From: Anaerolineae bacterium CG2_30_64_16
Lineage (GTDB): Bacteria; Chloroflexota; Anaerolineae; CG2-30-64-16
Assembly (NCBI GenBank): GCA_001871755.1
Contig: MNXL01000093.1
Coordinates: 1 to 39,850, forward strand
DNA: 39,850 bases
Reading direction: 5' to 3'
Shown here: one piece after another, positions 2,349 to 28,304 of the stretch
Numbering within the stretch: the first letter of the stretch is position 1
Layout of the letters: each line of letters opens with the position of its first letter
Position numbers and translations under genes: made by a program
The notes under the pieces: generated by a model
The model's input: only the letters and a program-made list of their open reading frames with translations
Told to the model about the DNA's origin: nothing
Database searches by the model: none

Positions 2349-2424
2349 CCATCCACCAACTACCAATCCACCCATCTACCCATCTACCAATTTACCAATC
2401 TACCAATTTACCAACCAACTATCC
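2349..2424. repeat. tandem about 8-nt array (CTACCAAT / TTACCAAT units)
   Basis: Direct reading: catctacc catctacc aatttacc aatctacc aatttacc. It lies between convergent genes and overlaps the stop of the glycosyltransferase. Confidence 0.75.
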
Positions 2425-3558
2425 CACCTCTCCAAGCACTTCTGCCATGAGCGCGTCGTAGATCGGCGCCTGGACTGACCAATCGAAGCGGGCGACCGCG
2501 CTGCGCAGCTCCGGCGCGGCAGGGGTCGTGAATGCGGCTCTGAGCCGCGCCAGCAGCCCGGCGAAGTCATCGTACAGGCAGGCCGCGCGCGCGGCCGGCG
2601 GGAGCAGCTCTGGATAGCTGAGCCGGTTGGGGAGGATCGGCCAGCAACCGCAATAGATCGCCTCGGCGACGCCGACTCCGAAGAACTCGTGGATCGCCGT
2701 GCTGAGCACCACATCCGCGCCCCAGAGCAACCGGGCGTATGCGGCCTCGCTTTCCGCATAGCCGTAATGGACCAGCCGGTCACCCAACCGGCGCCGGGCT
2801 TGACTGAACTCGGCCGGCTCGACGCGAAAGTTCTCCCCGGCCAGCGCCACCCGGAAGGGCAGCCCTTCGCTGGCGAGGGCATAGAGCGCGCTCAGCATTG
2901 TCTCAGGAGCCTTGTCGTACTCCCAGCGTTGATTCCACAGAATCAGCGGACTTGTCTCCCTGTTTCCTTGTCTCCTTGTTTCCTTGTCTACCCACATCGG
3001 CGCATACTTGTCATAACGTCTGAGATCGCAACCAACCGCCAACACCTCGGCCCGCGCGTGGGCAATCTCCACCGATTCCAGGTGCGTGTAGTCGGGGAAG
3101 TGCTTGAGCAGGCGCGGCAGCTCGGCGAACCAGCTCTGCATGTGGAAGGCGGAGTTGAAGCAGATCCGGTCGGCGGCCAGCATGGAGAGATGCTGGATCA
3201 TGCCGTAGGTCAGGTCGCGCTGGCTGCCGGGTGGGGGCGGGTAGGTGAGCTGGTTCTCGTGCATGTAGAGCACGATCGGGACGCGTGCCAGCTCGCGGCG
3301 GGTCAGCGCCAGGAATGCAGGCAGGTTGGTCATGCTGGTGGCAAGCAAGAGGTCGGGCCGTTCGCCCGCGGCGATCCGCGCCGCGGCCTGTTCGGCCAAT
3401 TCCAGCGCGGCGCCGTGCATCCGCCATTTCCAGAAGTAGCCCTGCATGGCGAAAATCTGCACCCGGTGCTGGCTGTGCGCGGCGTAGCCCTCGGCCCAGG
3501 CGCGATGGGAGCCGGTGTGATACGGGTTCAGCAGCCAAATGGTCAGCCGGTCGGTCAT
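2419..3558 (-). CDS. GT4-like glycosyltransferase with DUF3524 N-terminal domain (GTDC1-like)
   Basis: ORF 2419..3594. The likely start is MTDRLTIWLLNPYHTGSHRAWAEGY (ATG at 3558). The WKWRMHG motif and the C-terminal GT1/GT4-type fold sequence are recognised from memory of the family. Confidence 0.75.
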   Translation of the reverse strand: MTDRLTIWLLNPYHTGSHRAWAEGYAAHSQHRVQIFAMQGYFWKWRMHGAALELAEQAAARIAAGERPDLLLATSMTNLPAFLALTRRELARVPIVLYMHENQLTYPPPPGSQRDLTYGMIQHLSMLAADRICFNSAFHMQSWFAELPRLLKHFPDYTHLESVEIAHARAEVLAVGCDLRRYDKYAPMWVDKETRRQGNRETSPLILWNQRWEYDKAPETMLSALYALASEGLPFRVALAGENFRVEPAEFSQARRRLGDRLVHYGYAESEAAYARLLWGADVVLSTAIHEFFGVGVAEAIYCGCWPILPNRLSYPELLPPAARAACLYDDFAGLLARLRAAFTTPAAPELRSAVARFDWSVQAPIYDALMAEVLGEVG

Positions 3559-3575
3559 GGGGCGATGATAACATG

Positions 3576-3636
3576 AGGGCGGCGGGATGGGCAAGAGGCG
3601 GCCGGGGGGTCATGTTGGCGTGTTGAGTGATTGACA
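3576..3636. repeat. direct repeat copy 1 flanking TA cassette 1
   Basis: agggcggcgggatgggcaagaggcggccggggggtcatgttggcg...ttgaca. About 45 nt are near-identical to 4571-4623 (2 substitutions plus an 8-nt indel). Confidence 0.8.
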
Positions 3637-3659
3637 GTTTTCGTGCCTGGACGTAAAAT
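3631..3659 (+). promoter_or_regulatory. sigma70-like promoter of TA cassette 1
   Basis: TTGACA (3631-3636), a 17-nt spacer, then TAAAAT (3654-3659). It lies 35 nt upstream of the antitoxin ATG. Confidence 0.55.
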
Positions 3660-3693
3660 GATCCCCCAGAAGGATCCATGAAGGAGGTATGGC

Positions 3694-4050
3694 ATGTGTG
3701 CGGATGAAGCATCTGAAACGATCCACGAAGCGCGACCGATCTATTCCGGGGTTGAGACGCGTTGGCTCGACGAGCCTTTGATCGTTGAGCGAGCGGGACA
3801 CCCCACTGCGGTCATCATCTCCCTGGAGGAGTACCGGCGTTTTGCCGCCTGGCGCGAAGAACGAGCAGCCCGGCGCGCCTGGGTTCTGGAGTGCCAACCG
3901 CGCAACCATATGACGGATCAGGAATGGGATGCCCAGTTCGTCACTATGGATCGTTTCGCAACGCATTTCGCGGACATCACCGACGATGAATTGGCAGATG
4001 AGTTGACACAGGCAGTGAGCGCAGTGCGTGCTGAACGAGCGCGCCGATAA
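3694..4050 (+). CDS. putative antitoxin (Phd/YefM-like N-terminus)
   Basis: AAGGAGG lies 6 nt upstream. PLIVERAGHPTAVIISLEEYRRF resembles Phd/YefM antitoxins. It sits 6 nt upstream of a PIN gene. Confidence 0.6.
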   Translation: MCADEASETIHEARPIYSGVETRWLDEPLIVERAGHPTAVIISLEEYRRFAAWREERAARRAWVLECQPRNHMTDQEWDAQFVTMDRFATHFADITDDELADELTQAVSAVRAERARR

Positions 4051-4056
4051 GCTGTC

Positions 4057-4539
4057 ATGGCTGAGAACTTCAGCGCTGCGCCCCGGCGACTGATCGTCGT
4101 GCTCGATACAAATGCCCTGGTTCGAGTGGCCCTGGCGAAAAGTCCACTTGCCAGGGTATTGCGTTGTTCGCTGGAGCGCGGCGACTTTGTCTTGCTGACG
4201 TCGGGTGACATCCTGAACGAGATTGGCCGGGTTTTGTGCTACCCCCGAATCGCCATCCATCATGCCTTGTCCGAGGCAGCCATCGAGGAGTTCGAATTGG
4301 CCGTGAGGAAAGCGGCGGTGGTTGTCCCTGGACTCTACGTTGTGCGCAAGATTGAGGCTGATCCCTCCGACGATATGTTCCTGGCTTGCGCGCTGGAAGG
4401 GGACGCTGACTATATCGTCAGCGAAGACCCACACGTGCGAGATCTCAAGACCTATCAGGGCATTCAGATCATCTCGATGGCGCAGTTTTCCGAGAAGCTG
4501 GGTCTATCTGTGGCCCGTCCAGCGTCGCCCCAAACGTGA
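4057..4539 (+). CDS. PIN-domain toxin (TIGR00305-like PIN family)
   Basis: VVLDTNALV at the N-terminus, an acidic DPSDDMFLACALEGDADYIVSEDPH block and a QGIQIISMAQF tail. Confidence 0.8.
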   Translation: MAENFSAAPRRLIVVLDTNALVRVALAKSPLARVLRCSLERGDFVLLTSGDILNEIGRVLCYPRIAIHHALSEAAIEEFELAVRKAAVVVPGLYVVRKIEADPSDDMFLACALEGDADYIVSEDPHVRDLKTYQGIQIISMAQFSEKLGLSVARPASPQT

Positions 4540-4570
4540 CTGCGCCGCCCCTCTTGAATCGCTATCCAGC

Positions 4571-4623
4571 AGGGCGGCGGGATGGGCAAGAGGCGGCCGA
4601 GGGGTCATGTGGGCGATTTGACA
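4571..4623. repeat. direct repeat copy 2 flanking TA cassette 1
   Basis: agggcggcgggatgggcaagaggcggccgaggggtcatgtgggcgatttgaca. See 3576-3636. Confidence 0.8.
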
Positions 4624-4646
4624 GACCCATCGACCTGTGCTAGACT
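4618..4646 (+). promoter_or_regulatory. candidate promoter of the ilv-leu leader
   Basis: TTGACA (4618-4623), a 17-nt spacer, then TAGACT (4641-4646). Confidence 0.4.
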
Positions 4647-4686
4647 TCGCACAATCCAGTCCCAGTCTAGCCGGGGAATGTAAAAC

Positions 4687-4782
4687 ATGTCCGATCGCTC
4701 AGGCCTGATTATTATCTCCCTTATTGCGCTCCTTGTTATTAAGGAGCCATTGCCGTTTGGGAGGGATCAGGCGGGTATCTGA
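4687..4782 (+). CDS. candidate ilv-leu attenuation leader peptide, MSDRSGLIIISLIALLVIKEPLPFGRDQAGI
   Basis: A 31-codon ORF too short for the ORF track. GGGGA lies about 10 nt upstream of the ATG. Ten of 12 consecutive codons (4705-4740) encode Leu, Ile or Val. A terminator hairpin lies about 30 nt downstream of its stop. Confidence 0.6.
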   Translation: MSDRSGLIIISLIALLVIKEPLPFGRDQAGI

Positions 4783-4810
4783 GTCAGCGAATACCCGAAG
4801 AAGCACACCA

Positions 4811-4836
4811 GGGCCTCCCACACGGGAGGCCCTTTT
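4811..4836 (+). terminator. leader terminator 1
   Basis: gggcctccc-acac-gggaggccc (9-bp GC stem) followed by TTTT. tgggagg (4758-4764), inside the leader ORF, can pair with cctccca (4814-4820) as an antiterminator. Confidence 0.6.
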
Positions 4837-4890
4837 GGTTCCAGGTTTCGTCGATAGGGGGCGCCAGGTGGGCGCCAGAATAGGGCAAGG

Positions 4891-4941
4891 ACGCCTTCTT
4901 AGCGGTCGGTGACGCGGACCGCAGAGAAGGCGTTTTTGTTT
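4891..4941 (+). terminator. leader terminator 2
   Basis: acgccttct / agaaggcgt (9 bp) plus the inner pair gcggtc / gaccgc (6 bp), followed by TTTTGTTT. It ends 30 nt before the ilvB ATG. Confidence 0.55.
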
Positions 4942-4970
4942 CAAGCGCTATCATTGGGAGGAGGGGTGCG

Positions 4971-6662
4971 ATGAAACGAACAGGGGCCCAGATTGTCTGG
5001 GAGAGCATGATGCGTGAGGGTGTGGCGGTGGTATTCGGCTATCCAGGCGGGGCGATCATGCCGGTCTACGATGCGCTGTTGGACTACCCGGTTCATCATG
5101 TGCTGGTGCGCCACGAGGAGAACGCCGCGTTTGCCGCTGATGGCTATGCCCGAGCGAGTGGCAGGGTGGGAGTCTGTCTGGCCACTTCAGGGCCGGGCGC
5201 CACCAACCTGCTAACTGGTCTCGCCGACGCGATGATGGATTCGGCGCCGGTGGTGGCGATCACCGGGCAGGTGGCGTCGAGCCTGGTGGGTTCCGATGCG
5301 TTTCAGGAAACCGATGTGACCGGCGTCACGCTGCCGGTGACCAAACACAACTATCTGGTCACCAGGGTGGAGGAGTTGGCGGGCGTGATGAAAGAGGCGT
5401 TCCACATCGCCCGCTCCGGCCGACCTGGCCCCGTGTTGGTCGATGTATGCAAAGATGTGCAGTTCGCCTCCACCGATTTCGACTACGACGCCATCCAGGT
5501 GCGGTTGCCCGGCTATCGGCCAGTGATGCGGGGTACCGAAGAGCAGATCGAGGAGGCGGTGGCGCTGATCAACGCCTCGCAGCGCCCCATCATCCTGGCC
5601 GGCCACGGCATCATCCTCTCCGGGGCGCACGACGAACTCCAGTCCCTGGCCGAAAAAGCCCACATCCCCATCTCCACCACACTCCTGGGTATCGGCACGA
5701 TCCCCGAATCCCATCCACTCAACCTGCGCATGATGGGGATGCATGGTGAGGCCTATGTGAATCAGGCGGTTCAGGCCGCAGATCTCATCCTCGCGCTGGG
5801 CATGCGCTTCGATGATCGGGTCACCGGTACACTGCGCACCTATGCCCAGAACGCCCAGGTGATTCATGTGGACATCGACCCGGCGGAGATTGGCAAGAAC
5901 GTAGTCGCTGACATCGGCATCGTCGGCGATGCGAAAAACGTCCTGGCCCAGCTCCTGCCCCGAGTCGAGTACCAGGAGCGGGCGGACTGGTTCGCCCAGA
6001 TCGACGAGTGGCGGCAAGATACCACCCGCCGCGACATCCTGAACCGGGAGGAGGATGCTTCGCTGCACGTGCCGTTTGTGATCGATCAGATCCGGCGCAG
6101 CATCAACGGCAGCGGCCAGGTGACCATCGTCAGCGACGTGGGCCAGCACCAGATGTGGGCGGCGCAATACTTCCGCCACGAGCGGCGCAACCGTTTCTTT
6201 ACATCGGGCGGGCTGGGCTCGATGGGCTGTGGTCTGCCGATGGCGGTAGGCGCCTCCTTCGCCAGACCGGACGAGGAGGTCTGGGTGATCGCCGGGGATG
6301 GCGGTTTCCAGATGAGCCTCCCTGAGCTGGCGACCGTCGCGCAGGAACGGCTGCCGATCAAGATCGCGGTAATGCGGAATGGCTACCTTGGGATGGTGCG
6401 GCAGTGGCAGGAGCTGCTGCTTGGAAAGCGTTACTCAGGCGTTGCCATCAGCAGCCCGGATTTCGTGAAGGTGGCCGAGGCGTACGGCATCCTGGGGATG
6501 CGGGCGAGCGAGAAGTCACAAGTGGCCGAGGTGATCGCCGAGGCTCGGTCTCATCCCGGCCCGACCCTGATCGACTTCGTGGTGGAGCAGGAGGCCAACG
6601 TCTACCCGATGGTGGAGCCGGGCAAGGCGCTGCACGAGATGTTGCGGCGACCGCTCGCGTGA
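4971..6662 (+). CDS. ilvB: acetolactate synthase large subunit
   Basis: 563 aa, ThDP enzyme. N-terminal GAQIVWESMMREGVAVVFGYPGGAI and the ThDP motif GGLGSMGCGLP...GDGGFQM. GGAGGAGGGG RBS. Confidence 0.93.
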   Translation: MKRTGAQIVWESMMREGVAVVFGYPGGAIMPVYDALLDYPVHHVLVRHEENAAFAADGYARASGRVGVCLATSGPGATNLLTGLADAMMDSAPVVAITGQVASSLVGSDAFQETDVTGVTLPVTKHNYLVTRVEELAGVMKEAFHIARSGRPGPVLVDVCKDVQFASTDFDYDAIQVRLPGYRPVMRGTEEQIEEAVALINASQRPIILAGHGIILSGAHDELQSLAEKAHIPISTTLLGIGTIPESHPLNLRMMGMHGEAYVNQAVQAADLILALGMRFDDRVTGTLRTYAQNAQVIHVDIDPAEIGKNVVADIGIVGDAKNVLAQLLPRVEYQERADWFAQIDEWRQDTTRRDILNREEDASLHVPFVIDQIRRSINGSGQVTIVSDVGQHQMWAAQYFRHERRNRFFTSGGLGSMGCGLPMAVGASFARPDEEVWVIAGDGGFQMSLPELATVAQERLPIKIAVMRNGYLGMVRQWQELLLGKRYSGVAISSPDFVKVAEAYGILGMRASEKSQVAEVIAEARSHPGPTLIDFVVEQEANVYPMVEPGKALHEMLRRPLA

Positions 6663-8625: not shown

Positions 8626-10224
8626 ATGGATGAACCTGCTGTTGTTCGTATCTTCGATACAACCCTGCGCGACGGTGAGCAGTCACCGGGCGCGACGCTG
8701 AATATCGACGAGAAACTGGAGATCGCCCGGCAGTTGGCGCGTCTGGGCGTCGACGTCATCGAGGCCGGCTTTCCGATTGCGTCACCAGGCGACTTCGAGG
8801 CGGTGCGCCGGGTGGCCGACGAGGTGGGACGGGGCGATGACGCCCCCATCATCGCCGGGTTGGCGCGGGCCAATCAGGCCGATATCGACCGGGCCTGGCA
8901 GGCCGTCAAGGGCGCGCGGCGGCCGCGCATTCACACCTTCCTGGCGACGTCTGACATCCATCTGAAGTACAAGCTCAAGATCAGCCGCGAGGAGTGCCTG
9001 GCGCGAGCGGCCGAGATGGTGGCCTATGCCCGCGGTTTGTGTGAGGACGTGGAGTTCTCGCCGGAGGACGGCGGCCGCTCAGACCCCGAGTTCCTTTATC
9101 AGGTGCTGGAGGCCGCGATCAAGGCCGGCGCGACCACTCTCAATATCCCGGACACCGTCGGCTACACTACCCCGCAGGAGTTCGGCGCGCTGATCGCCGG
9201 CATCCGTGAGCATGTGCCAGGCGCCCGGGATGTGATCCTTTCGGCGCACTGTCACAATGACCTGGGGCTGGCGACAGCTAACACCCTGGCCGCCATCGCC
9301 AACGGGGCGCGCCAGGTCGAGGTGACCGTCAACGGGATCGGCGAGCGGGCGGGCAACACGTCGTTGGAAGAGGTCGTGATGGCGTTGTACACCCGGCCCA
9401 CGGTCTACGGGCTGCGCACCCATATCGACACCACCCAGATCGCCCGAGCCAGCCGCCTGGTCAGCGCGTACACCGGCATTCCGGTGCAGCCCAACAAGGC
9501 GATCGTCGGCGCGAATGCGTTTGCGCACGAGGCCGGCATTCACCAGGATGGCGTGCTCAAGAACCCGTTGACTTACGAGATCATGCGGCCCGAGACGATC
9601 GGCATCACCGAGAGCAAGCTCGTCCTGGGCAAGCACAGCGGCCGCCACGCGTTCCAGACCAAGCTGGCCGAGTTGGGCTACGACCTGAACCCGGAGGACA
9701 TGAACCGCGTGTTCGAGCGCTTCAAGGACCTGTGCGACAAGAAGAAGGTCGTCAGCGATCCTGACATCGAGGCGATCATCAACGACGAGGTGTACCAGCC
9801 GGTGGAGTTGTGGCGGCTCGAGCACGTCCAGGTCTCTTGCGGCACCAGCATGCGCCCCACGGCTACGGTGACGTTGCGCGGCCCGGATGGCATCGTGCGC
9901 GAGGACGCCGCGGTCGGCGCCGGGCCGGTGGACTCGGTCTACATGGCCATCAACCGGATCGTCCAGGCGCCCAACGTGCTCACCGAGTTCAGCATCAACG
10001 CGGTGACCGAAGGGATCGACGCGGTGGGTGAGGTGACGATTCGCATCGAGGGGACCAACGGCGCGCACGGCCGGCACTATGCCCTGAACCCGCAGTTCGG
10101 CCTGCGTCAGCGCACCTACAGCGGCCACGGCGCAGACACGGATATCATCGTGGCGTCCGCAAAGGCGTACATGAGCGCGTTGAACAAGATGCTGAGTGCG
10201 CGCAAAGAGGAAGTCGGCGGCTAG
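8626..10224 (+). CDS. leuA: 2-isopropylmalate synthase
   Basis: 532 aa. [33 protein letters not shown], and a C-terminal LeuA dimerisation/regulatory domain. Confidence 0.92.
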
Positions 10225-10631
10225 GAAGCGGATTCCAGGAGGCGCAAGAACCGGCCAAGCTTGATGATTTGGATGCCTGCGTAGCTGCCCAAATCGAGAA
10301 GGTCATCGTCCTGTGAGACGACGTATTTGCAGTGACCGTCCAGGGCGCACTCGATGAACTTGTTGTCGTCTGGGTCACGCTCGACGACGTTAAGCAGGCT
10401 GGTTACCTGGATGACATCGCAGAGCTCGACCAGGCGCAGCCACCACTCGTACGTGGACTCGTCGGGAAGGTCGAAGTAGGCGCGCAAAGTCCTGACGATC
10501 TCATGCAGGATCGGGTGAGAGGCAACCGCAATGTAGTTGCCCGCCTCTGCGCGAAGATAGAGTTGGTGAGCGGCGCTGCGGCGGAGGATGGCGCCGATCC
10601 AGACGTTGGTGTCAAGGACAGCGCGGGTCAA
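10221..10631 (-). CDS. PIN-domain toxin (paralogue of 4057-4539)
   Basis: [49 protein letters not shown]. It has a TTG start that overlaps the antitoxin stop (TTGA). Its stop shares CTAG with the leuA stop. Confidence 0.8.
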
Positions 10632-11065
10632 GACCTCCTCCGATCGTGGGCGACGCGCCTCGTGCGGTGCACGGCTTCATCGACGATCTGGTCGAATTGC
10701 TCATCGGTCAAAGTGTCGTAGTCCAGGTCGCGTTCCTTGAGCCATGCGCGCATATGCGTTTCCGTGCGGCGCTCCAGATCGTAGATCGCCGCATCGGGAC
10801 CAAGCCGAGCATAGCGTCTCTCGACCTCTTCCACAGCCAGGGCGGCGCGGGCGAGCTCAGCCGGCGAAGCGCCATCTTGGGCGAGCATGTCGAGATATGC
10901 CTGGCGCAATTCGCCAATGGGGGGTTTGGTCCGCAGCGTCTTAGCGTACCTCACAACCAGCCAGACGTCACGCGGGGAGAGGGCCTTGATGGCCGATGTC
11001 AGTTCTTGTTCGAGCATTTTGTCCATGAATTCCTGCTCCCTGAGGCGTTGGTCTCTGGAGGTCAT
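10628..11065 (-). CDS. putative antitoxin of the antisense PIN cassette
   Basis: The ATG at 11065 ([13 protein letters not shown]...) lies 18-25 nt downstream of a consensus promoter. The gene is translationally coupled to the PIN gene. Its C-terminal motif is shared with antitoxin 3694-4050. Confidence 0.6.
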
Positions 11066-11089
11066 TGAACCCTTCACGGGCTCAAACCG

Positions 11090-11118
11090 ATTATAGGCCA
11101 GATGTTCGGGCCTGTCAA
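11090..11118 (-). promoter_or_regulatory. consensus sigma70 promoter of the antisense TA cassette
   Basis: The minus strand reads TTGACA, a 17-nt spacer (ggcccgaacatctggcc), then TATAAT. It lies between the antitoxin ATG and the leuC RBS. Confidence 0.65.
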
Positions 11119-11139
11119 TCCCGTTTTTACAGGAGGCGT

Positions 11140-12552
11140 ATGCCACGCACACTTTTCGACAAGATCTGGGACGCCCACGTGGTGGCCGCGGAAACAAGCG
11201 CAGCGACGGCAGCCCCGACTGTGCTCTACATCGACTTGCACCTGGTCCACGAAGTGACATCGCCGCAGGCGTTCGAGGCGTTGCGGCAGCGCGGGCTCAA
11301 GGTCCGCCGGCCTGATAAGACCGTAGCGACCGTCGATCACAGCATCCCGACGCACGACCGCGCGCTCCCCATCACGGACGCGCTGGCGGCCAAACAGATC
11401 GCCCAACTGGAGACGAACTGCCGTGAGTTCGGTATCCCGCTGTACAGCATCGGCAGCGATCATCAAGGCGTGGTCCACGTGATCGGCCCGGAGCTGGGGC
11501 TGACCCAACCCGGCATGACCATCGTCTGCGGTGACAGCCACACGGCCACCCACGGCGCGTTCGGCGCGCTGGCCTTCGGCATCGGCACCAGCGAAGTGTC
11601 GCACGTGCTGGCCACCCAATGCCTGTTCCAGGAGAAGCCGCGGAGCTGCGAGGTGCGGGTCGCGGGACGGCTGGGGCCGGGTGTCTCGCCCAAGGACATC
11701 ATCCTGGCGTTGATCGCCCAGAACGGCGTGGGCGGTGGCGCCGGGCAGGTGTTCGAGTACACCGGGGGCGCGATCCGGGCGCTCTCGATGGAAGGCCGGA
11801 TGACGGTCTGCAACATGAGCATCGAAGGGGGCGCGCGGGCCGGGTTGGTCGCGCCGGACGACACGACCTTCGAGTATCTGGCCGGCCGGCCGTTTGCCCC
11901 GCGGGGGACAGCCTGGGAGCGGGCCATGGCGCGCTGGCGGGCGTTGCCATCCGACCCCGGCGCGACCTACGACAAGACCATCACCCTGGATGTGAACGAC
12001 CTGGCGCCGATGATCACCTACGGCGTCAACCCCGGCATGGGGATGCTGGTCACGGGCCGCGTCCCTGACCCGGAAACGGTGCCCGACCTCAGCCAACGCC
12101 GGGCGCTGGTGAAGGCGTTGGACTACATGGATTTGACGCCGGGGCAGGCGCTGCTCGGCCACCCGATCGACGTGGTGTTCATCGGCTCGTGCACAAACGG
12201 CCGCCTGTCGGACCTGCGCGCCGCGGCCGGGGTCTTGCGCGGCCGCAAGGTCGCGGCGGGCGTGCGCGTCCTGGTCGTGCCGGGCTCGCAAGAGGTCAAG
12301 GCCCAGGCTGAGGCGGAACGGCTGGATGTGATCTTCAAGGAGGCCGGCTGCGAGTGGCGGGAGCCGGGGTGCAGCATGTGCATCGCGATGAACGGCGATC
12401 AACTACAACCGGGCCAGTCCGCGGTGAGCACCAGCAACCGCAATTTCGAAGGCCGGCAGGGGCCGGGTGGCCGCACCTTCCTGGCCAGCCCGTTGACCGC
12501 CGCGGCGAGCGCGGTGGCGGGCGCGGTGGCGGACGTGCGGATGATGATGTAG
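11140..12552 (+). CDS. leuC: 3-isopropylmalate dehydratase large subunit
   Basis: The ATG at 11140 follows [21 protein letters not shown] and the aconitase-family Cys motifs ([20 protein letters not shown]). Confidence 0.93.
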
Positions 12553-26124: not shown

Positions 26125-28304
26125 CCCAACGCCACAAAACCCTTCAACCACCGGATCAACTCGCGCGCTTTCTCCTCCGAGTCGGCCTCGGCAAAGATGC
26201 GCAGCACCGGCTCGGTGCCCGAGAAGCGTATCAGCAGCCAGTTGTCGTTCTCCAGGAAGAACTTGGTGCCATCCATGTGGGACACGCCCCGCAACGGATA
26301 CGGCCCGATATGGGTGAGCCCGGTCTCGGCCAGGCGACGCGGGACGACGACCCGCATCTCGGAGGTGGCTGGCAGGTTCTCCTCCACGCTGTACAGGCGG
26401 CCGGTGATGCGGTAGATCTCCTCGCACAGCTCTGAAATTGTCTTGCCCGTGCGAGCCAGCATCTCGACGACCAGCACCGCGGCAAAGATGCCGTCCTTGC
26501 CCAGGATGTGGCCGCGGATGGTCAGCCCGCCGCTGCTCTCGCCGCCCAACAGGGCATTGCGCTCCTTCATGGCCGCGACGACGTGCTTGAAACCGACTGG
26601 CACTTCGTAACATTCTTCGCCCAGATGCGCGGCCAGCCGGTCCAGCAGGTGCGTGGTGGCCAGGTTGCGCACCACACCACCTCGCTCGCCGCGCACCTTG
26701 TGCAGGTAGTAGTAGAGCAACAGCAGAACGTCGTTGATGGGCACATATCCACCCCGCTCGTCTACAATCGCGATACGGTCGGCGTCGCCGTCGGTGGCCA
26801 GGCCGAGATGGTAGCCGTCCTCCTGAACGTGGGTCATCAACAGCCGCAAGGCCTCCAGGTTGGGCGCCGGCGAGCGGCCGCCGAACAGCGGGTTGCGGCG
26901 CTCGTGGATGAAGGTCACCCGGCAGCGCGCCTCGGTGAGGATGATGCCCAGGGTGAGCTGCCCCGTGCCGTACATCGGGTCGACGATGACCTTGAGGCCG
27001 GCGTCGCGGATGGCGTCCAGGTCCACCAGCGACTCGACGGCGTCCACGTACTCGTTGACGAAATCGGCGCGGCGGACGATGTCCGCTTCCAGGCCCACAT
27101 CGAGCGGGATCTTGACCACGTCGCGCGTCATCAGGGTGTTGGTCTCGGCTTCGATGCGCTCCGTCTCCTCGGTGAGCAGCAACGAACCGTCGCCGTGAAA
27201 GACCTTCAGGCCGTTCCACTCGGGTGGATTATGGCTGGCGGTGAAGGCCAGACCATAGGCCACGCCCTGGGCCGCTGCCGCGTAGGTGATGAGCGGCGTC
27301 GGCGCGTCCTCAGTCAGCAGGATGACGGGGATGTTGTTCCCGGCAAAGACCTCCGCTGCCGCCTCGGCCGCCCGGTCGGAGAGGAAGCGGCGGTCAAAGC
27401 CGACGAGCACGCCCCGTTTTTCCTCGCCGCGGCGGATCACGTCGTTGGCCAGCGCCTGACACAGCCGCCGCACGTTGTGCAGGGTGAACCCCTCGCCGAT
27501 GACGGCCCGCCAGCCACCGGTGCCAAAGGTAACCAGGTTCTCCTCCTCGTGGCGGCGGGGGCGATAGAGCCGCTTCTGCAGGATGAACTCGGCCCGTTCC
27601 AGATCCTCCCGGGTGTTGATGCCCAGCACCTCGTCCTGGTCGTAGATCTGATGGCTCTCCACCCGCAGCCCGGAGCGAATGAGGCGGTGGGCGCAGTCGG
27701 TGAGGCGGTATTCGCCGTCCAGGGGCGAAGGCGCCAGGGTCCTTAAAGCAGGCCAGATCTTTTCAGCGCAGACGACGTAGGCCCCCACGTTCAGCTCGCG
27801 GATCTGGCGCACTTCGGCCGAAGCCTCTTCCTCTTCGATAATGTCCATGATGCGCCCGCTCGCGTCGCGGATGATGCGGCCGTAGGGCAGGGGCCGATCC
27901 ACCACGGCACTGAGCAGGGTCAGGTGTGCCTGCCGCAGCCGGTGGCGATTGAGCAGCCCCAAGATGGACGCCGGCCGGAAGAGGGGGGTGTCGCCGTAGA
28001 GGATGAGCAGATCGCCCCGGAAATCTGCCAGCAAAGGATCGAGTTGCAAGACGGCGTGCCCGGTGCCCAGCGGCTCAGCCTGGATCACGTACCGAAAACC
28101 CGGCCCCAGGTGCGCCCGCACCCTGTCTTGCTCGTAGCCGACGACGATGTAGAGATCGTCCACCGCCACACGCCGCAGCGCGCACTCGACCACATGGTCC
28201 AGAACCGCGCGGTCGCCGAGCGGCTGAAGCAGCAGTGGTTCTCTATCGGCCGTGATCGTCTGTTGGCCCGCCGCCAGGATGACGGCTTTCAGTTCCTTAC
28301 TCAT
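26121..28304 (-). CDS. fusion protein: GlmU-N-like nucleotidyltransferase domain + alpha-D-phosphohexomutase
   Basis: The N-terminal ~245 aa carry AVILAAG, LGTGHAV, LILYGDTPL and EYRLTD. The C-terminal ~480 aa carry FTASHNPPEWNGLK, LATDGDADR, GGESSGG and RFSGTEPVLR. The ATG at 28304 overlaps the upstream stop (ATGAGTAA). Confidence 0.85.
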   Translation of the reverse strand: MSKELKAVILAAGQQTITADREPLLLQPLGDRAVLDHVVECALRRVAVDDLYIVVGYEQDRVRAHLGPGFRYVIQAEPLGTGHAVLQLDPLLADFRGDLLILYGDTPLFRPASILGLLNRHRLRQAHLTLLSAVVDRPLPYGRIIRDASGRIMDIIEEEEASAEVRQIRELNVGAYVVCAEKIWPALRTLAPSPLDGEYRLTDCAHRLIRSGLRVESHQIYDQDEVLGINTREDLERAEFILQKRLYRPRRHEEENLVTFGTGGWRAVIGEGFTLHNVRRLCQALANDVIRRGEEKRGVLVGFDRRFLSDRAAEAAAEVFAGNNIPVILLTEDAPTPLITYAAAAQGVAYGLAFTASHNPPEWNGLKVFHGDGSLLLTEETERIEAETNTLMTRDVVKIPLDVGLEADIVRRADFVNEYVDAVESLVDLDAIRDAGLKVIVDPMYGTGQLTLGIILTEARCRVTFIHERRNPLFGGRSPAPNLEALRLLMTHVQEDGYHLGLATDGDADRIAIVDERGGYVPINDVLLLLYYYLHKVRGERGGVVRNLATTHLLDRLAAHLGEECYEVPVGFKHVVAAMKERNALLGGESSGGLTIRGHILGKDGIFAAVLVVEMLARTGKTISELCEEIYRITGRLYSVEENLPATSEMRVVVPRRLAETGLTHIGPYPLRGVSHMDGTKFFLENDNWLLIRFSGTEPVLRIFAEADSEEKARELIRWLKGFVALG

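Follow-up and report, generated by a model that had tools for sequence, protein, structure and literature searches.

A putative ribosome-mediated attenuator with two terminators in series ahead of the ilvBNC-leu operon of an Anaerolineae bacterium

In the genome of Anaerolineae bacterium CG2_30_64_16 (Chloroflexota; G+C content 63%), the acetolactate synthase gene ilvB is preceded by an intergenic stretch that carries a short open reading frame (ORF) rich in codons for leucine, isoleucine, and valine as well as two terminator-like hairpins, which raises the question of how this stretch might govern the operon behind it. We approached this question in an entirely computational analysis of positions 1-39,850 of contig MNXL01000093.1 (assembly GCA_001871755.1), hereafter called the window, in which the stretch lies between a gene for a PIN-domain protein (4057-4539) and ilvB (4971-6662), all on the plus strand. 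An initial annotation of the same DNA had proposed ribosome-mediated attenuation, and our analysis leads to a similar reading: With a probability of roughly 80%, positions 4618-4970 represent the promoter and leader of the ilvBNC-leu operon and function as a ribosome-mediated transcription attenuator in which a second terminator (T2) stands in series behind a first one (T1). This reading is drawn from four features that were established computationally, namely the anatomy of the leader, the conservation and covariation of its helices, the coding constraint on its ORF, and the match between its codons and the products of the operon. The positions of all features are collected in Table 1. As a promoter-like site was found at 4618-4646, we let the leader element begin at the -35 box; the arrangement TTGACA-17-(TG)n-TAnAnT recurs ahead of the leader in most close relatives, in one of them (L018) without the TG.

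The most conspicuous part of the leader is its ORF of 31 codons, which is present just as the initial annotation had described it, including the ten Leu, Ile, or Val codons among twelve in succession: codons 7-18 encode L I I I S L I A L L V I. Among the 334 ORFs of 20-80 amino acids in the six frames of the window, this density of ten Leu/Ile/Val per 12 residues is followed by a runner-up with seven, and most ORFs have two to four. Seven of the ten codons in question are ATT, CTT, or GTT, which are rare in the operon genes, where they account for 8% of Ile, 4% of Leu, and 5% of Val codons, respectively; attenuators classically carry rare codons in their sensor. Behind ilvB, equivalog matches identify ilvN, ilvC, and leuA and, after a gap, leuC, leuD, and cimA (citramalate synthase). 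Because these are the genes downstream, the Leu/Ile/Val codons of the leader fit the products of the operon.

Positions 4650-4970, whose folding had been suggested as a check, adopt a minimum-energy structure that is far more stable than those of dinucleotide shuffles (z = -6.85). It starts with a long bulged hairpin, in which segment 1 (GCCUGAU...UCUCCC) pairs with segment 2 (GGGAGGGAUCAGGC) and which is capped by a perfect hairpin inside the ORF (4728-4747), and continues with a hairpin at the stop codon, T1, a small G+C hairpin, and the long hairpin of T2; a repeat finder independently returned the same arms. Within the 1:2 structure, the pairing of GCCTGAT (4703-4709) with ATCAGGC (4766-4772) flanks the pairing of TCTCCC (4715-4720) with GGGAGG (4759-4764), the latter of which had been anticipated from the letters alone. 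Likewise present is the complementarity between TGGGAGG (4758-4764) and CCTCCCA (4814-4820) that had been noted as a possible antiterminator, and it extends to 12 nucleotides (nt) (4753-4764 with 4814-4825, 92%). The G+C-rich hairpin with TTTT that had been placed behind the ORF corresponds to T1, with stems at 4810-4819 and 4824-4833 and a TTTT that reaches to 4836. The in-ORF hairpin, which is followed by a U-rich stretch, is a possible pause site and may serve to synchronise polymerase and ribosome. Three features had not been listed in the initial annotation, namely this in-ORF hairpin, the small hairpin between T1 and T2 (4860-4876), and the promoter-like site.

The leader is not confined to this genome. 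The family that we assembled from a protein search and contig look-ups, and then from a covariance model on 16 leaders, which added ten, comprises 26 related leaders from Anaerolineae, Ardenticatena, Caldilineaceae (L018), and Sphaerobacter (L032). Judged by IlvB, the nearest species representative is the Anaerolineae genome bin L001 (76% identity), with other representatives at 61% or less, while the protein search returned relatives with 99, 92 ('Chloroflexi bacterium HGW'), 82, 80, and down to 63% identity; a metagenome scan with IlvB yielded, among the matches listed, identities of 59% or less, and the closer relatives came from the protein search and the contig look-ups. All fetched relatives keep the leader ORF, the in-ORF hairpin, GGGAGG, and GGGCCUCCC-loop-GGGAGGCCC, and the cluster of Leu/Ile/Val codons is conserved in the 26 leaders. 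Wherever the downstream gene could be identified, the leader precedes the first gene of the operon, which is either ilvB or else ilvD or ilvE with ilvB to follow. At seven loci, made up of six new matches of the covariance model and the weaker match L092, it heads operons that begin with ilvD (L008, L012, L014, L022, L081, L092) or ilvE (L011); ilvB lies 1-3 kb further downstream in these operons, T1 abuts the start codon, and T2 is absent. As ilvB is not their first gene, the leaders of these operons had escaped a plain inspection of the sequence ahead of ilvB. The family includes a cultured organism, Ardenticatena maritima (L183; GCA_001306175.1, LGKN01000004.1), whose leader peptide is annotated as 'hypothetical protein ARMA_2590'.

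This family allowed us to ask whether the alternative helices keep their pairing across relatives. When the 26 leaders are aligned to fit the structure, pairing in the terminator-state structure amounts to 80.9%, and both sides change in 27 of its 34 pairs; not one of 500 shuffles reaches it in any of five measures, and sliding the partners against each other reduces the pairing to 44-59%. Across the 26 sequences, the in-ORF hairpin is 96% paired (six of seven pairs changing on both sides) and T1 is 100% paired (seven of eight), with a T-rich tail in nearly all members. For the 2:3 antiterminator, the 26-leader alignment shows 79.6% pairing, with changes on both sides in six of 12 pairs, and a covariation score of 0.194 as compared with 0.140 in shuffles (0/500 as high) and at most 0.089 when the partners are slid. 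The alignment was neither built on nor fitted to 2:3, so this result is an independent test. The bases in the loop of T1, which have no role in T1 itself, change in step with the 5' part of segment 2: CCGTTTGGGAGG is matched by CCTCCCAAACGG in L173, CCGCTTGGGAGG by CCTCCCAAGCGG in L001, and TCGGTTGGGGGG by CCTCCCAACCGG in L172, so that complementarity is complete in these three leaders (12/12) as well as in L014 (10/10). In the more distant leaders L014, L081, and L008, the whole triplet of segments is swapped to GGGCGG / CCGCCC / GGGCGG. An alignment-free test, in which each arm was offered its own or a foreign partner arm, favours the own partner for 1:2 (p = 5e-5), 2:3 (p = 4e-4), and 3:4 (p = 8.5e-4). 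The layout of 1:2, 2:3, and 3:4 helices put forward by the initial annotation is found in the window as well as in 26 related leaders, every helix showing compensatory changes, and both the ORF and the stems, on whose conservation in relatives that proposal had been staked, turned out to be conserved, which leaves it unrefuted.

The same comparison bears on the role of the ORF. The span of the in-ORF hairpin is 20, 23, 29, or 32 nt among relatives and other insertions into the ORF are triplets, too, while the spacing 3' of the stop codon varies freely; these length changes in steps of 3 nt indicate that the ORF is translated and under coding constraint. What is conserved within it appears to be mostly RNA and not peptide. 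The peptide motif E-L-L...K-E corresponds to GCUCCUU...AAGGAGC of the in-ORF hairpin, and G-R corresponds to GGGAGG; in L173, the stop codon precedes GGGAGG and these nucleotides are kept nonetheless, for which reason the conserved C-terminal 'P-x-G-R' is to be understood as a feature of the RNA. One could argue that the ORF encodes a functional small hydrophobic protein that stands ahead of ilvB incidentally, as the peptide is hydrophobic and helix-like, is at times called by gene callers, and differs between the window and L163 by two synonymous changes, the sole differences between the two ORFs. We consider this highly improbable: the peptide varies widely in length (20-38 amino acids or more) and sequence, it ends in L173 before the allegedly conserved C-terminus, its conserved residues fall on RNA helices, the codons of its run are rare, and it always stands ahead of the first branched-chain amino-acid gene, whichever gene this is, where the downstream gene can be identified. 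No Pfam or NCBIfam model matches the leader peptides, which are unnamed or listed as 'hypothetical protein' in public records.

The comparative data also bear on the hairpins. The two terminators lie behind the PIN gene, which ends at 4539 and has the same orientation, so one may ask whether they simply terminate its transcription and the Leu/Ile/Val-rich ORF arose by chance. In L163 and L169, the upstream gene is a divergent glycosyltransferase gene, the PIN gene is absent, and the leader is intact; because these relatives keep the whole leader behind a gene on the opposite strand, its hairpins are not terminators of the upstream gene. Together with the promoter between the PIN gene and the ORF, the singular position of the ORF among the 334 short ORFs, and the covariation of the 1:2 and 2:3 helices, this leaves the chance explanation barely credible, and on these sequence comparisons we regard it as already contradicted.

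A further candidate is a T-box or a metabolite riboswitch in place of a leader-peptide attenuator. It gains some plausibility from three members of the Dehalococcoidia, L028 (2698-2950), L034 (2344-2613), and L055 (2654-2917), in which a T-box (RF00230) lies directly upstream of ilvB. Applied to 4400-5100 of the window, the same model gives no match at E up to 10. Rfam scans of the window and of 12 further members of the family yield no T-box, riboswitch, or leader family (Leu_leader, His_leader, Thr_leader, Trp_leader, Phe_leader, and the ilvB motifs as far as Rfam 15 contains them) at gathering score. The best match below threshold in 4400-5100 (E up to 10) is Phe_leader with 27.1 bits against a threshold of 55, and it is driven by the terminator. 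As moreover both the codon run and the length changes by multiples of 3 nt speak for translation, a T-box or riboswitch is extremely unlikely here. A T-box-like pairing of a UGGN motif with the tRNA end was tried as well and rejected, as the motif is not conserved and does not fit the discriminator base.

For the attenuator, we propose the following sequence of events, in which the stalling of the ribosome, the ending of transcription at T1 and T2, and every response to the supply of amino acids are inferred from this anatomy. RNA polymerase would start at about 4653, and a ribosome would begin to translate the 31-codon ORF. With ample charged Leu, Ile, and Val tRNAs, the ribosome would pass over segment 2 to the stop codon; as long as it covers 4753-4764, segment 3 would not be held, 3:4 would fold as T1, and transcription would end at about 4836. 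If the ORF were left untranslated, 1:2 would form with the same outcome, termination at T1. A shortage of Leu, Ile, or Val would make the ribosome stall within the mostly rare NTT codons at 4705-4740, where it would open 1:2 and leave segment 2 uncovered; segment 2 could then take up segment 3 and the loop of T1 (4814-4825) before segment 4 is made; T1 would not form, and the polymerase would read on. This geometry fits the classical scheme, with the stall sites located in the 1:2 structure, on its 5' arm and in its loop. Polymerases past T1 would reach T2 about 100 nt later, where leak-through from a T1 whose U-tract is weakened in this clade would be trimmed.

Why a second terminator should follow remains the less obvious part of the question. 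T2 had been described in the initial annotation as stronger than T1 and as unexplained; the hairpin was confirmed and is conserved as a structure in the clade, and a controller was sought and not found. Its tract ends 29 nt before the ATG of ilvB. Among the 14 ilvB-first relatives examined in detail, 12 have a T2-like hairpin (-27 to -44 kcal/mol) with a T-rich tract, which ends 21-69 nt before the ilvB ATG, or further upstream where insertions intervene. The interior sequence of T2 differs almost completely among members without loss of pairing: in the basal 12 bp, pairing amounts to 91.7% and eight of 12 pairs change on both sides (score 0.624 vs 0.25 in shuffles), and the test of own against foreign arms gives p = 5e-5. 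Via an A/G-rich tract upstream, the stem reaches into its own U-tract. L001 lacks T2 and is left with a seemingly decayed remnant; L018, L032, and every ilvD- or ilvE-first leader that was found lack it as well.

Our best guess is that T2 is a plain second intrinsic terminator in series, without a sensor, which backs up a leaky T1. In line with this, the proximal uninterrupted U run of T1 averages 3.7 in T2-bearing and 5.75 in T2-less leaders (p = 0.013), in a comparison that ignores shared ancestry and in which four T1 stem ends were set by hand. This limitation is one of several points that weigh against our reading of the leader as an attenuator with T2 behind T1. With respect to T2, it seems wasteful to place a strong unregulated terminator behind a near-consensus promoter; T2 is dispensable, as L001 seemingly lost it and the ilvD- and ilvE-first leaders never had it; and the invariant GGC triplet together with hairpin A hints at something more specific than a plain back-up. 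With respect to T1, the predicted duplex energies are -14.4 kcal/mol for 2:3 and -23.7 kcal/mol for 3:4, so that the outcome hinges on kinetics, although a 2:3 helix weaker than 3:4 is usual for attenuators, as in the E. coli trp leader. The stop codon in the window lies 15 nt past GGGAGG, so that a terminating ribosome would mask segment 2 only partly and timing would matter more; in most relatives, the stop codon is closer, within a few nt of GGGAGG. Finally, the scheme presupposes that transcription and translation are coupled in Chloroflexota, which cannot be taken for granted.

Should T2 not be a mere back-up, it could be a regulated second checkpoint, addressed either by a chain of helices from the sensor of the leader or by a factor that recognises the context of GGC and hairpin A. 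We regard this as a tentative option with odds clearly below even; if true, the leader would be a two-stage attenuator of a kind that we have not found described for leader-peptide systems. In one version of it, which we consider rather doubtful, an RNA-binding protein or small RNA provides T2 with a separate input through hairpin A, GGC, or the base of T2, which would make the leader a tandem attenuator with two inputs. T2, the short hairpin before it, and the invariant GGC are kept down to 57-63% IlvB identity, and a separate input would remove the apparent wastefulness of a strong promoter followed by an unregulated strong terminator. Moreover, there are precedents: In the Salmonella mgtCBR leader (PMC3641672) and in tandem riboswitches, two regulatory stem-loops likewise stand in series within one leader, but each of these elements has its own sensor (two upstream ORFs (uORFs) or two aptamers), whereas none was found for T2. 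Hairpin A has no conserved loop or stem sequence; the spacer between T1 and T2 has a variable length of just 35-164 nt, which is too short for known aptamers; Rfam gives no match there at E up to 10; a reading of the relatives revealed no conserved small ORF across the spacer; and in the fetched contigs no candidate regulator gene is conserved beside the operon.

In the other version, the signal would be relayed from T1: the 2:3 helix would free segment 4 to block the 5' arm of T2, which results in a chain of six segments with 1:2, 3:4, and 5:6 in the off state and 2:3 and 4:5 in the on state. All members allow a pairing between segment 4 plus its tail and the conserved base of the T2 5' arm (mean -11.6 vs -9.2 +/- 0.8 kcal/mol for shuffled arms), and the region of segment 2 can pair with the whole T2 5' arm in the window (-22.1 kcal/mol) and in L163 (-18.0 kcal/mol). 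This complementarity is expected from composition, as segment 4 and the T2 3' arm are both purine-rich halves of terminators, and it does not covary: own and foreign partners perform equally (4:5, p = 0.12 and 0.49; 2:5, p = 0.12). At about -10 kcal/mol, 4:5 would be around three times weaker than T2 (about -30 kcal/mol), whose upper 5' arm would stay free as a toehold for displacement, and since 3:4 is more stable than 2:3, segment 4 would likely be recaptured before the polymerase has made T2. When the T2 5' arm was scanned for duplexes with the entire sequence upstream, partners turned up in segment 2, segment 4, or hairpin A, none of them consistent, and the own-versus-foreign tests for 4:5, 2:5, 2:6, 3:6, and 1:6 were all non-significant. 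A relay from segment 4 to T2 is therefore unlikely. Two other candidates were rejected: Small ORFs over T2 (4868-4912, 4909-4974) lack a Shine-Dalgarno sequence, and neither L163 nor L166 preserves their frames; a sigma-54 promoter was dismissed on reading the sequence, as GGCAAnGAYGCC has the wrong spacing. Elsewhere in the window, GGCNNNGAYGCC has six matches as compared with 2.75 expected; the one that was read, at 26481, lies inside a coding region.

How does the attenuator with T2 in series compare with known systems? It resembles the leaders of E. coli ilvBN (ivbL) and ilvGMEDA (ilvL) and the trp, his, leu, thr, and phe leaders in its short ORF rich in end-product codons, in its mutually exclusive 1:2, 2:3, and 3:4 helices with 3:4 as the terminator, in the multivalent sensing of Leu, Ile, and Val that we propose for it, and in its rare codons (PMC9413887); it differs in belonging to another phylum, in the lack of any sequence relation, in the conserved in-ORF hairpin with Ile and Val codons in its loop, and in the second conserved terminator. 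With the uORF attenuator of Corynebacterium ilvBNC (the ilvB-II motif), the ilvB-OMG motif, and the Leptospira ilvB motif, it shares a uORF upstream of ilvB that is rich in branched-chain codons. For Corynebacterium, ilvB-OMG (from marine gamma-proteobacteria), and Leptospira, which were first catalogued as orphan RNA motifs, attenuation has been proposed or shown (PMC10272879; PMC11857589); in contrast to our leader, they are of unrelated sequence and structure, and none of them is described with a second terminator. Membership in the ilvB-OMG or Leptospira ilvB motif was rejected, as the published alignments share nothing with the leader and the Rfam scan gave no match. The leucine-rich attenuator peptide of Staphylococcus aureus ilv-leu is likewise a leader-peptide attenuator from a non-proteobacterial lineage, although of unrelated sequence and reported to act together with CodY (PMC5794164).

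The closest counterparts in phylogenetic terms are the T-boxes of the Dehalococcoidia, which stand in the same phylum and at the same position, presumably respond to the charging of branched-chain tRNAs, and have a terminator as output. While such a T-box senses uncharged tRNA directly with an RNA of about 250 nt, the sensor here would be the translating ribosome. A switch between T-box and leader peptide is known between Firmicutes and Proteobacteria (PMC2965389); the same switch would recur here within one phylum and ahead of the same gene, with a T-box in Dehalococcoidia and a leader peptide in Anaerolineae. Full-text searches yielded no description of the leader in Chloroflexota, with the 2010 survey of Lopatovskaya et al. 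(PMID 20198868) lying outside their scope, which leaves priority unsettled. A cis-regulatory RNA survey from 2013 took in Rfam families only, including T-boxes and the His, Trp, Thr, and Leu leaders, as stated in passages of it (PMC3766115), and these passages report no ilv leader in Chloroflexi. The initial annotation had known of no such attenuator in this lineage, which agrees with the lack of Rfam, Pfam, and NCBIfam matches, the unnamed peptide records, and the literature searches.

We therefore see the leader as a well-supported addition to a known mechanism of attenuation, with T2 as one unexplained add-on. It would extend classical leader-peptide attenuation to Chloroflexota (Anaerolineae, Ardenticatena, Caldilineaceae, and Sphaerobacter), and it would imply that transcription and translation are close enough in time for the ribosome to steer the folding of the RNA, which is not a given outside Proteobacteria. 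Unrelated uORFs rich in Leu, Ile, and Val (e.g. ...NLISLILVL...GLIMA), several of which are followed by terminator hairpins, were also observed upstream of ilvB in delta-proteobacterial (L044, L051, L063, L072, L075), Acidobacteriota/Bryobacterales (L017, L069, L078), and myxobacterial (L010, L019) genome bins. Considering the Chloroflexota leaders along with the similar uORFs in Acidobacteriota and delta-proteobacterial bins, the mechanism is probably much wider than curated RNA and protein libraries suggest. The covariance model and the 26 sequences could seed a family that gives a name to 'hypothetical proteins' and unannotated leaders, and the conserved T2 without a sensor poses a small, clean open question, for which Ardenticatena maritima offers a cultured carrier.

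Table 1. Features of the putative attenuator leader in the window (positions in nt).
Feature	Position	Strand	Remarks
Promoter-like site	4618-4646	+	-35 TTGACA 4618-4623; 17-nt spacer with extended -10 TG; -10 TAGACT 4641-4646; score 10/12 plus TG
Shine-Dalgarno-like GGGGA	4673-4677	+	9 nt 5' of the leader ATG; purine-rich stretch at similar distance in most relatives
Leader ORF (ATG...TGA, 31 amino acids), MSDRSGLIIISLIALLVIKEPLPFGRDQAGI	4687-4782	+	homologous ORFs in 26 leaders
Segment 1 (GCCTGAT ... TCTCCC)	4703-4720	+	pairs with segment 2; duplex test p = 5e-5; double changes in the helices
Putative sensor run, CTG ATT ATT ATC tcc CTT ATT gcg CTC CTT GTT ATT	4705-4740	+	codons 7-18
In-ORF hairpin, GCTCCTT-GTTATT-AAGGAGC	4728-4747	+	tip of the 1:2 structure; Val/Ile codons in the loop
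Segment 2 (CCGTTTGGGAGG + GATCAGGC)	4753-4772	+	pairs with segment 1 or, through its first 12 nt, with segment 3 (antiterminator)
Stop-codon hairpin, CGGGTAT / ATACCCG	4772-4797	+	not conserved; only about 40% of alignment cells paired
T1 terminator	4810-4836	+	segment 3 AGGGCCTCCC 4810-4819; loop ACAC; segment 4 GGGAGGCCCT 4824-4833; then TTTT
Hairpin A, GGCGCC-AGGTG-GGCGCC	4860-4876	+	between T1 and T2; short hairpin of differing sequence there in most T2-bearing relatives
GGC triplet	4884-4886	+	3 nt 5' of the T2 core; without variation among the 12 T2-bearing leaders (window + 11 relatives)
T2 terminator	4886-4941	+	22-nt arms 4886-4907 / 4917-4938; core 4890-4934 (-30.4 kcal/mol); then TTTTTGTTT 4933-4941
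ilvB Shine-Dalgarno region, GGGAGGAGGGG	4956-4966	+	read from the sequence
ilvB, acetolactate synthase large subunit	4971-6662	+	TIGR00118, 746 bits; first gene of the operon

Some further observations concern the leader and its surroundings. The sequence TTGGGAGG occurs twice, in segment 2 (4757-4764) and in the ribosome-binding site of ilvB (4954-4961), and both copies have their complement in segment 3 (CCTCCCA). Folding of the leader might conceivably have a side-effect on translation, one that is not conserved in detail. In L163-L165 (about 2330-2470) and in L173 (about 1290-1470), the stretch from T2 to ilvB contains long palindromic G+C-rich inserts, e.g. GTCATTGCGAGGAGCG...CGCTCGCAATGAC in L163, which resemble mobile repeat elements whose arrival in the leader left T1 and T2 in place. 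Overlapping the -10 box, there is a perfect 8-bp inverted repeat, GCTAGACT / AGTCTAGC, at 4639-4646 and 4664-4671, which is probably no operator, as it is not conserved in L163.

Upstream of the leader, the PIN toxin gene is accompanied by a Phd/YefM-like antitoxin gene (3694-4050) with its own promoter-like site (3631-3659). The pair (region 3631-4575) forms an insertion between a glycosyltransferase gene (2419-3594, minus strand) and the ilvB leader; it is absent from the relative with 92% identity (L163-165) and from L169, in which the shared sequence picks up again at about 4576. Between leuA and leuC, inside the biosynthetic operon, the minus strand carries a second PIN_3-domain gene (10221-10631) with an ORF (10628-11260) adjacent to it, and a perfect 12/12 sigma-70-like promoter is present at 11118-11090; the arrangement resembles a further toxin-antitoxin insertion, by which the transcription of the operon may be split. 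Elsewhere in the window, there is a tRNA gene on the minus strand (1749-1819, 63 bits); a promoter-like site belongs to it at 1857-1829, as does a hairpin of terminator type at 1742-1711.

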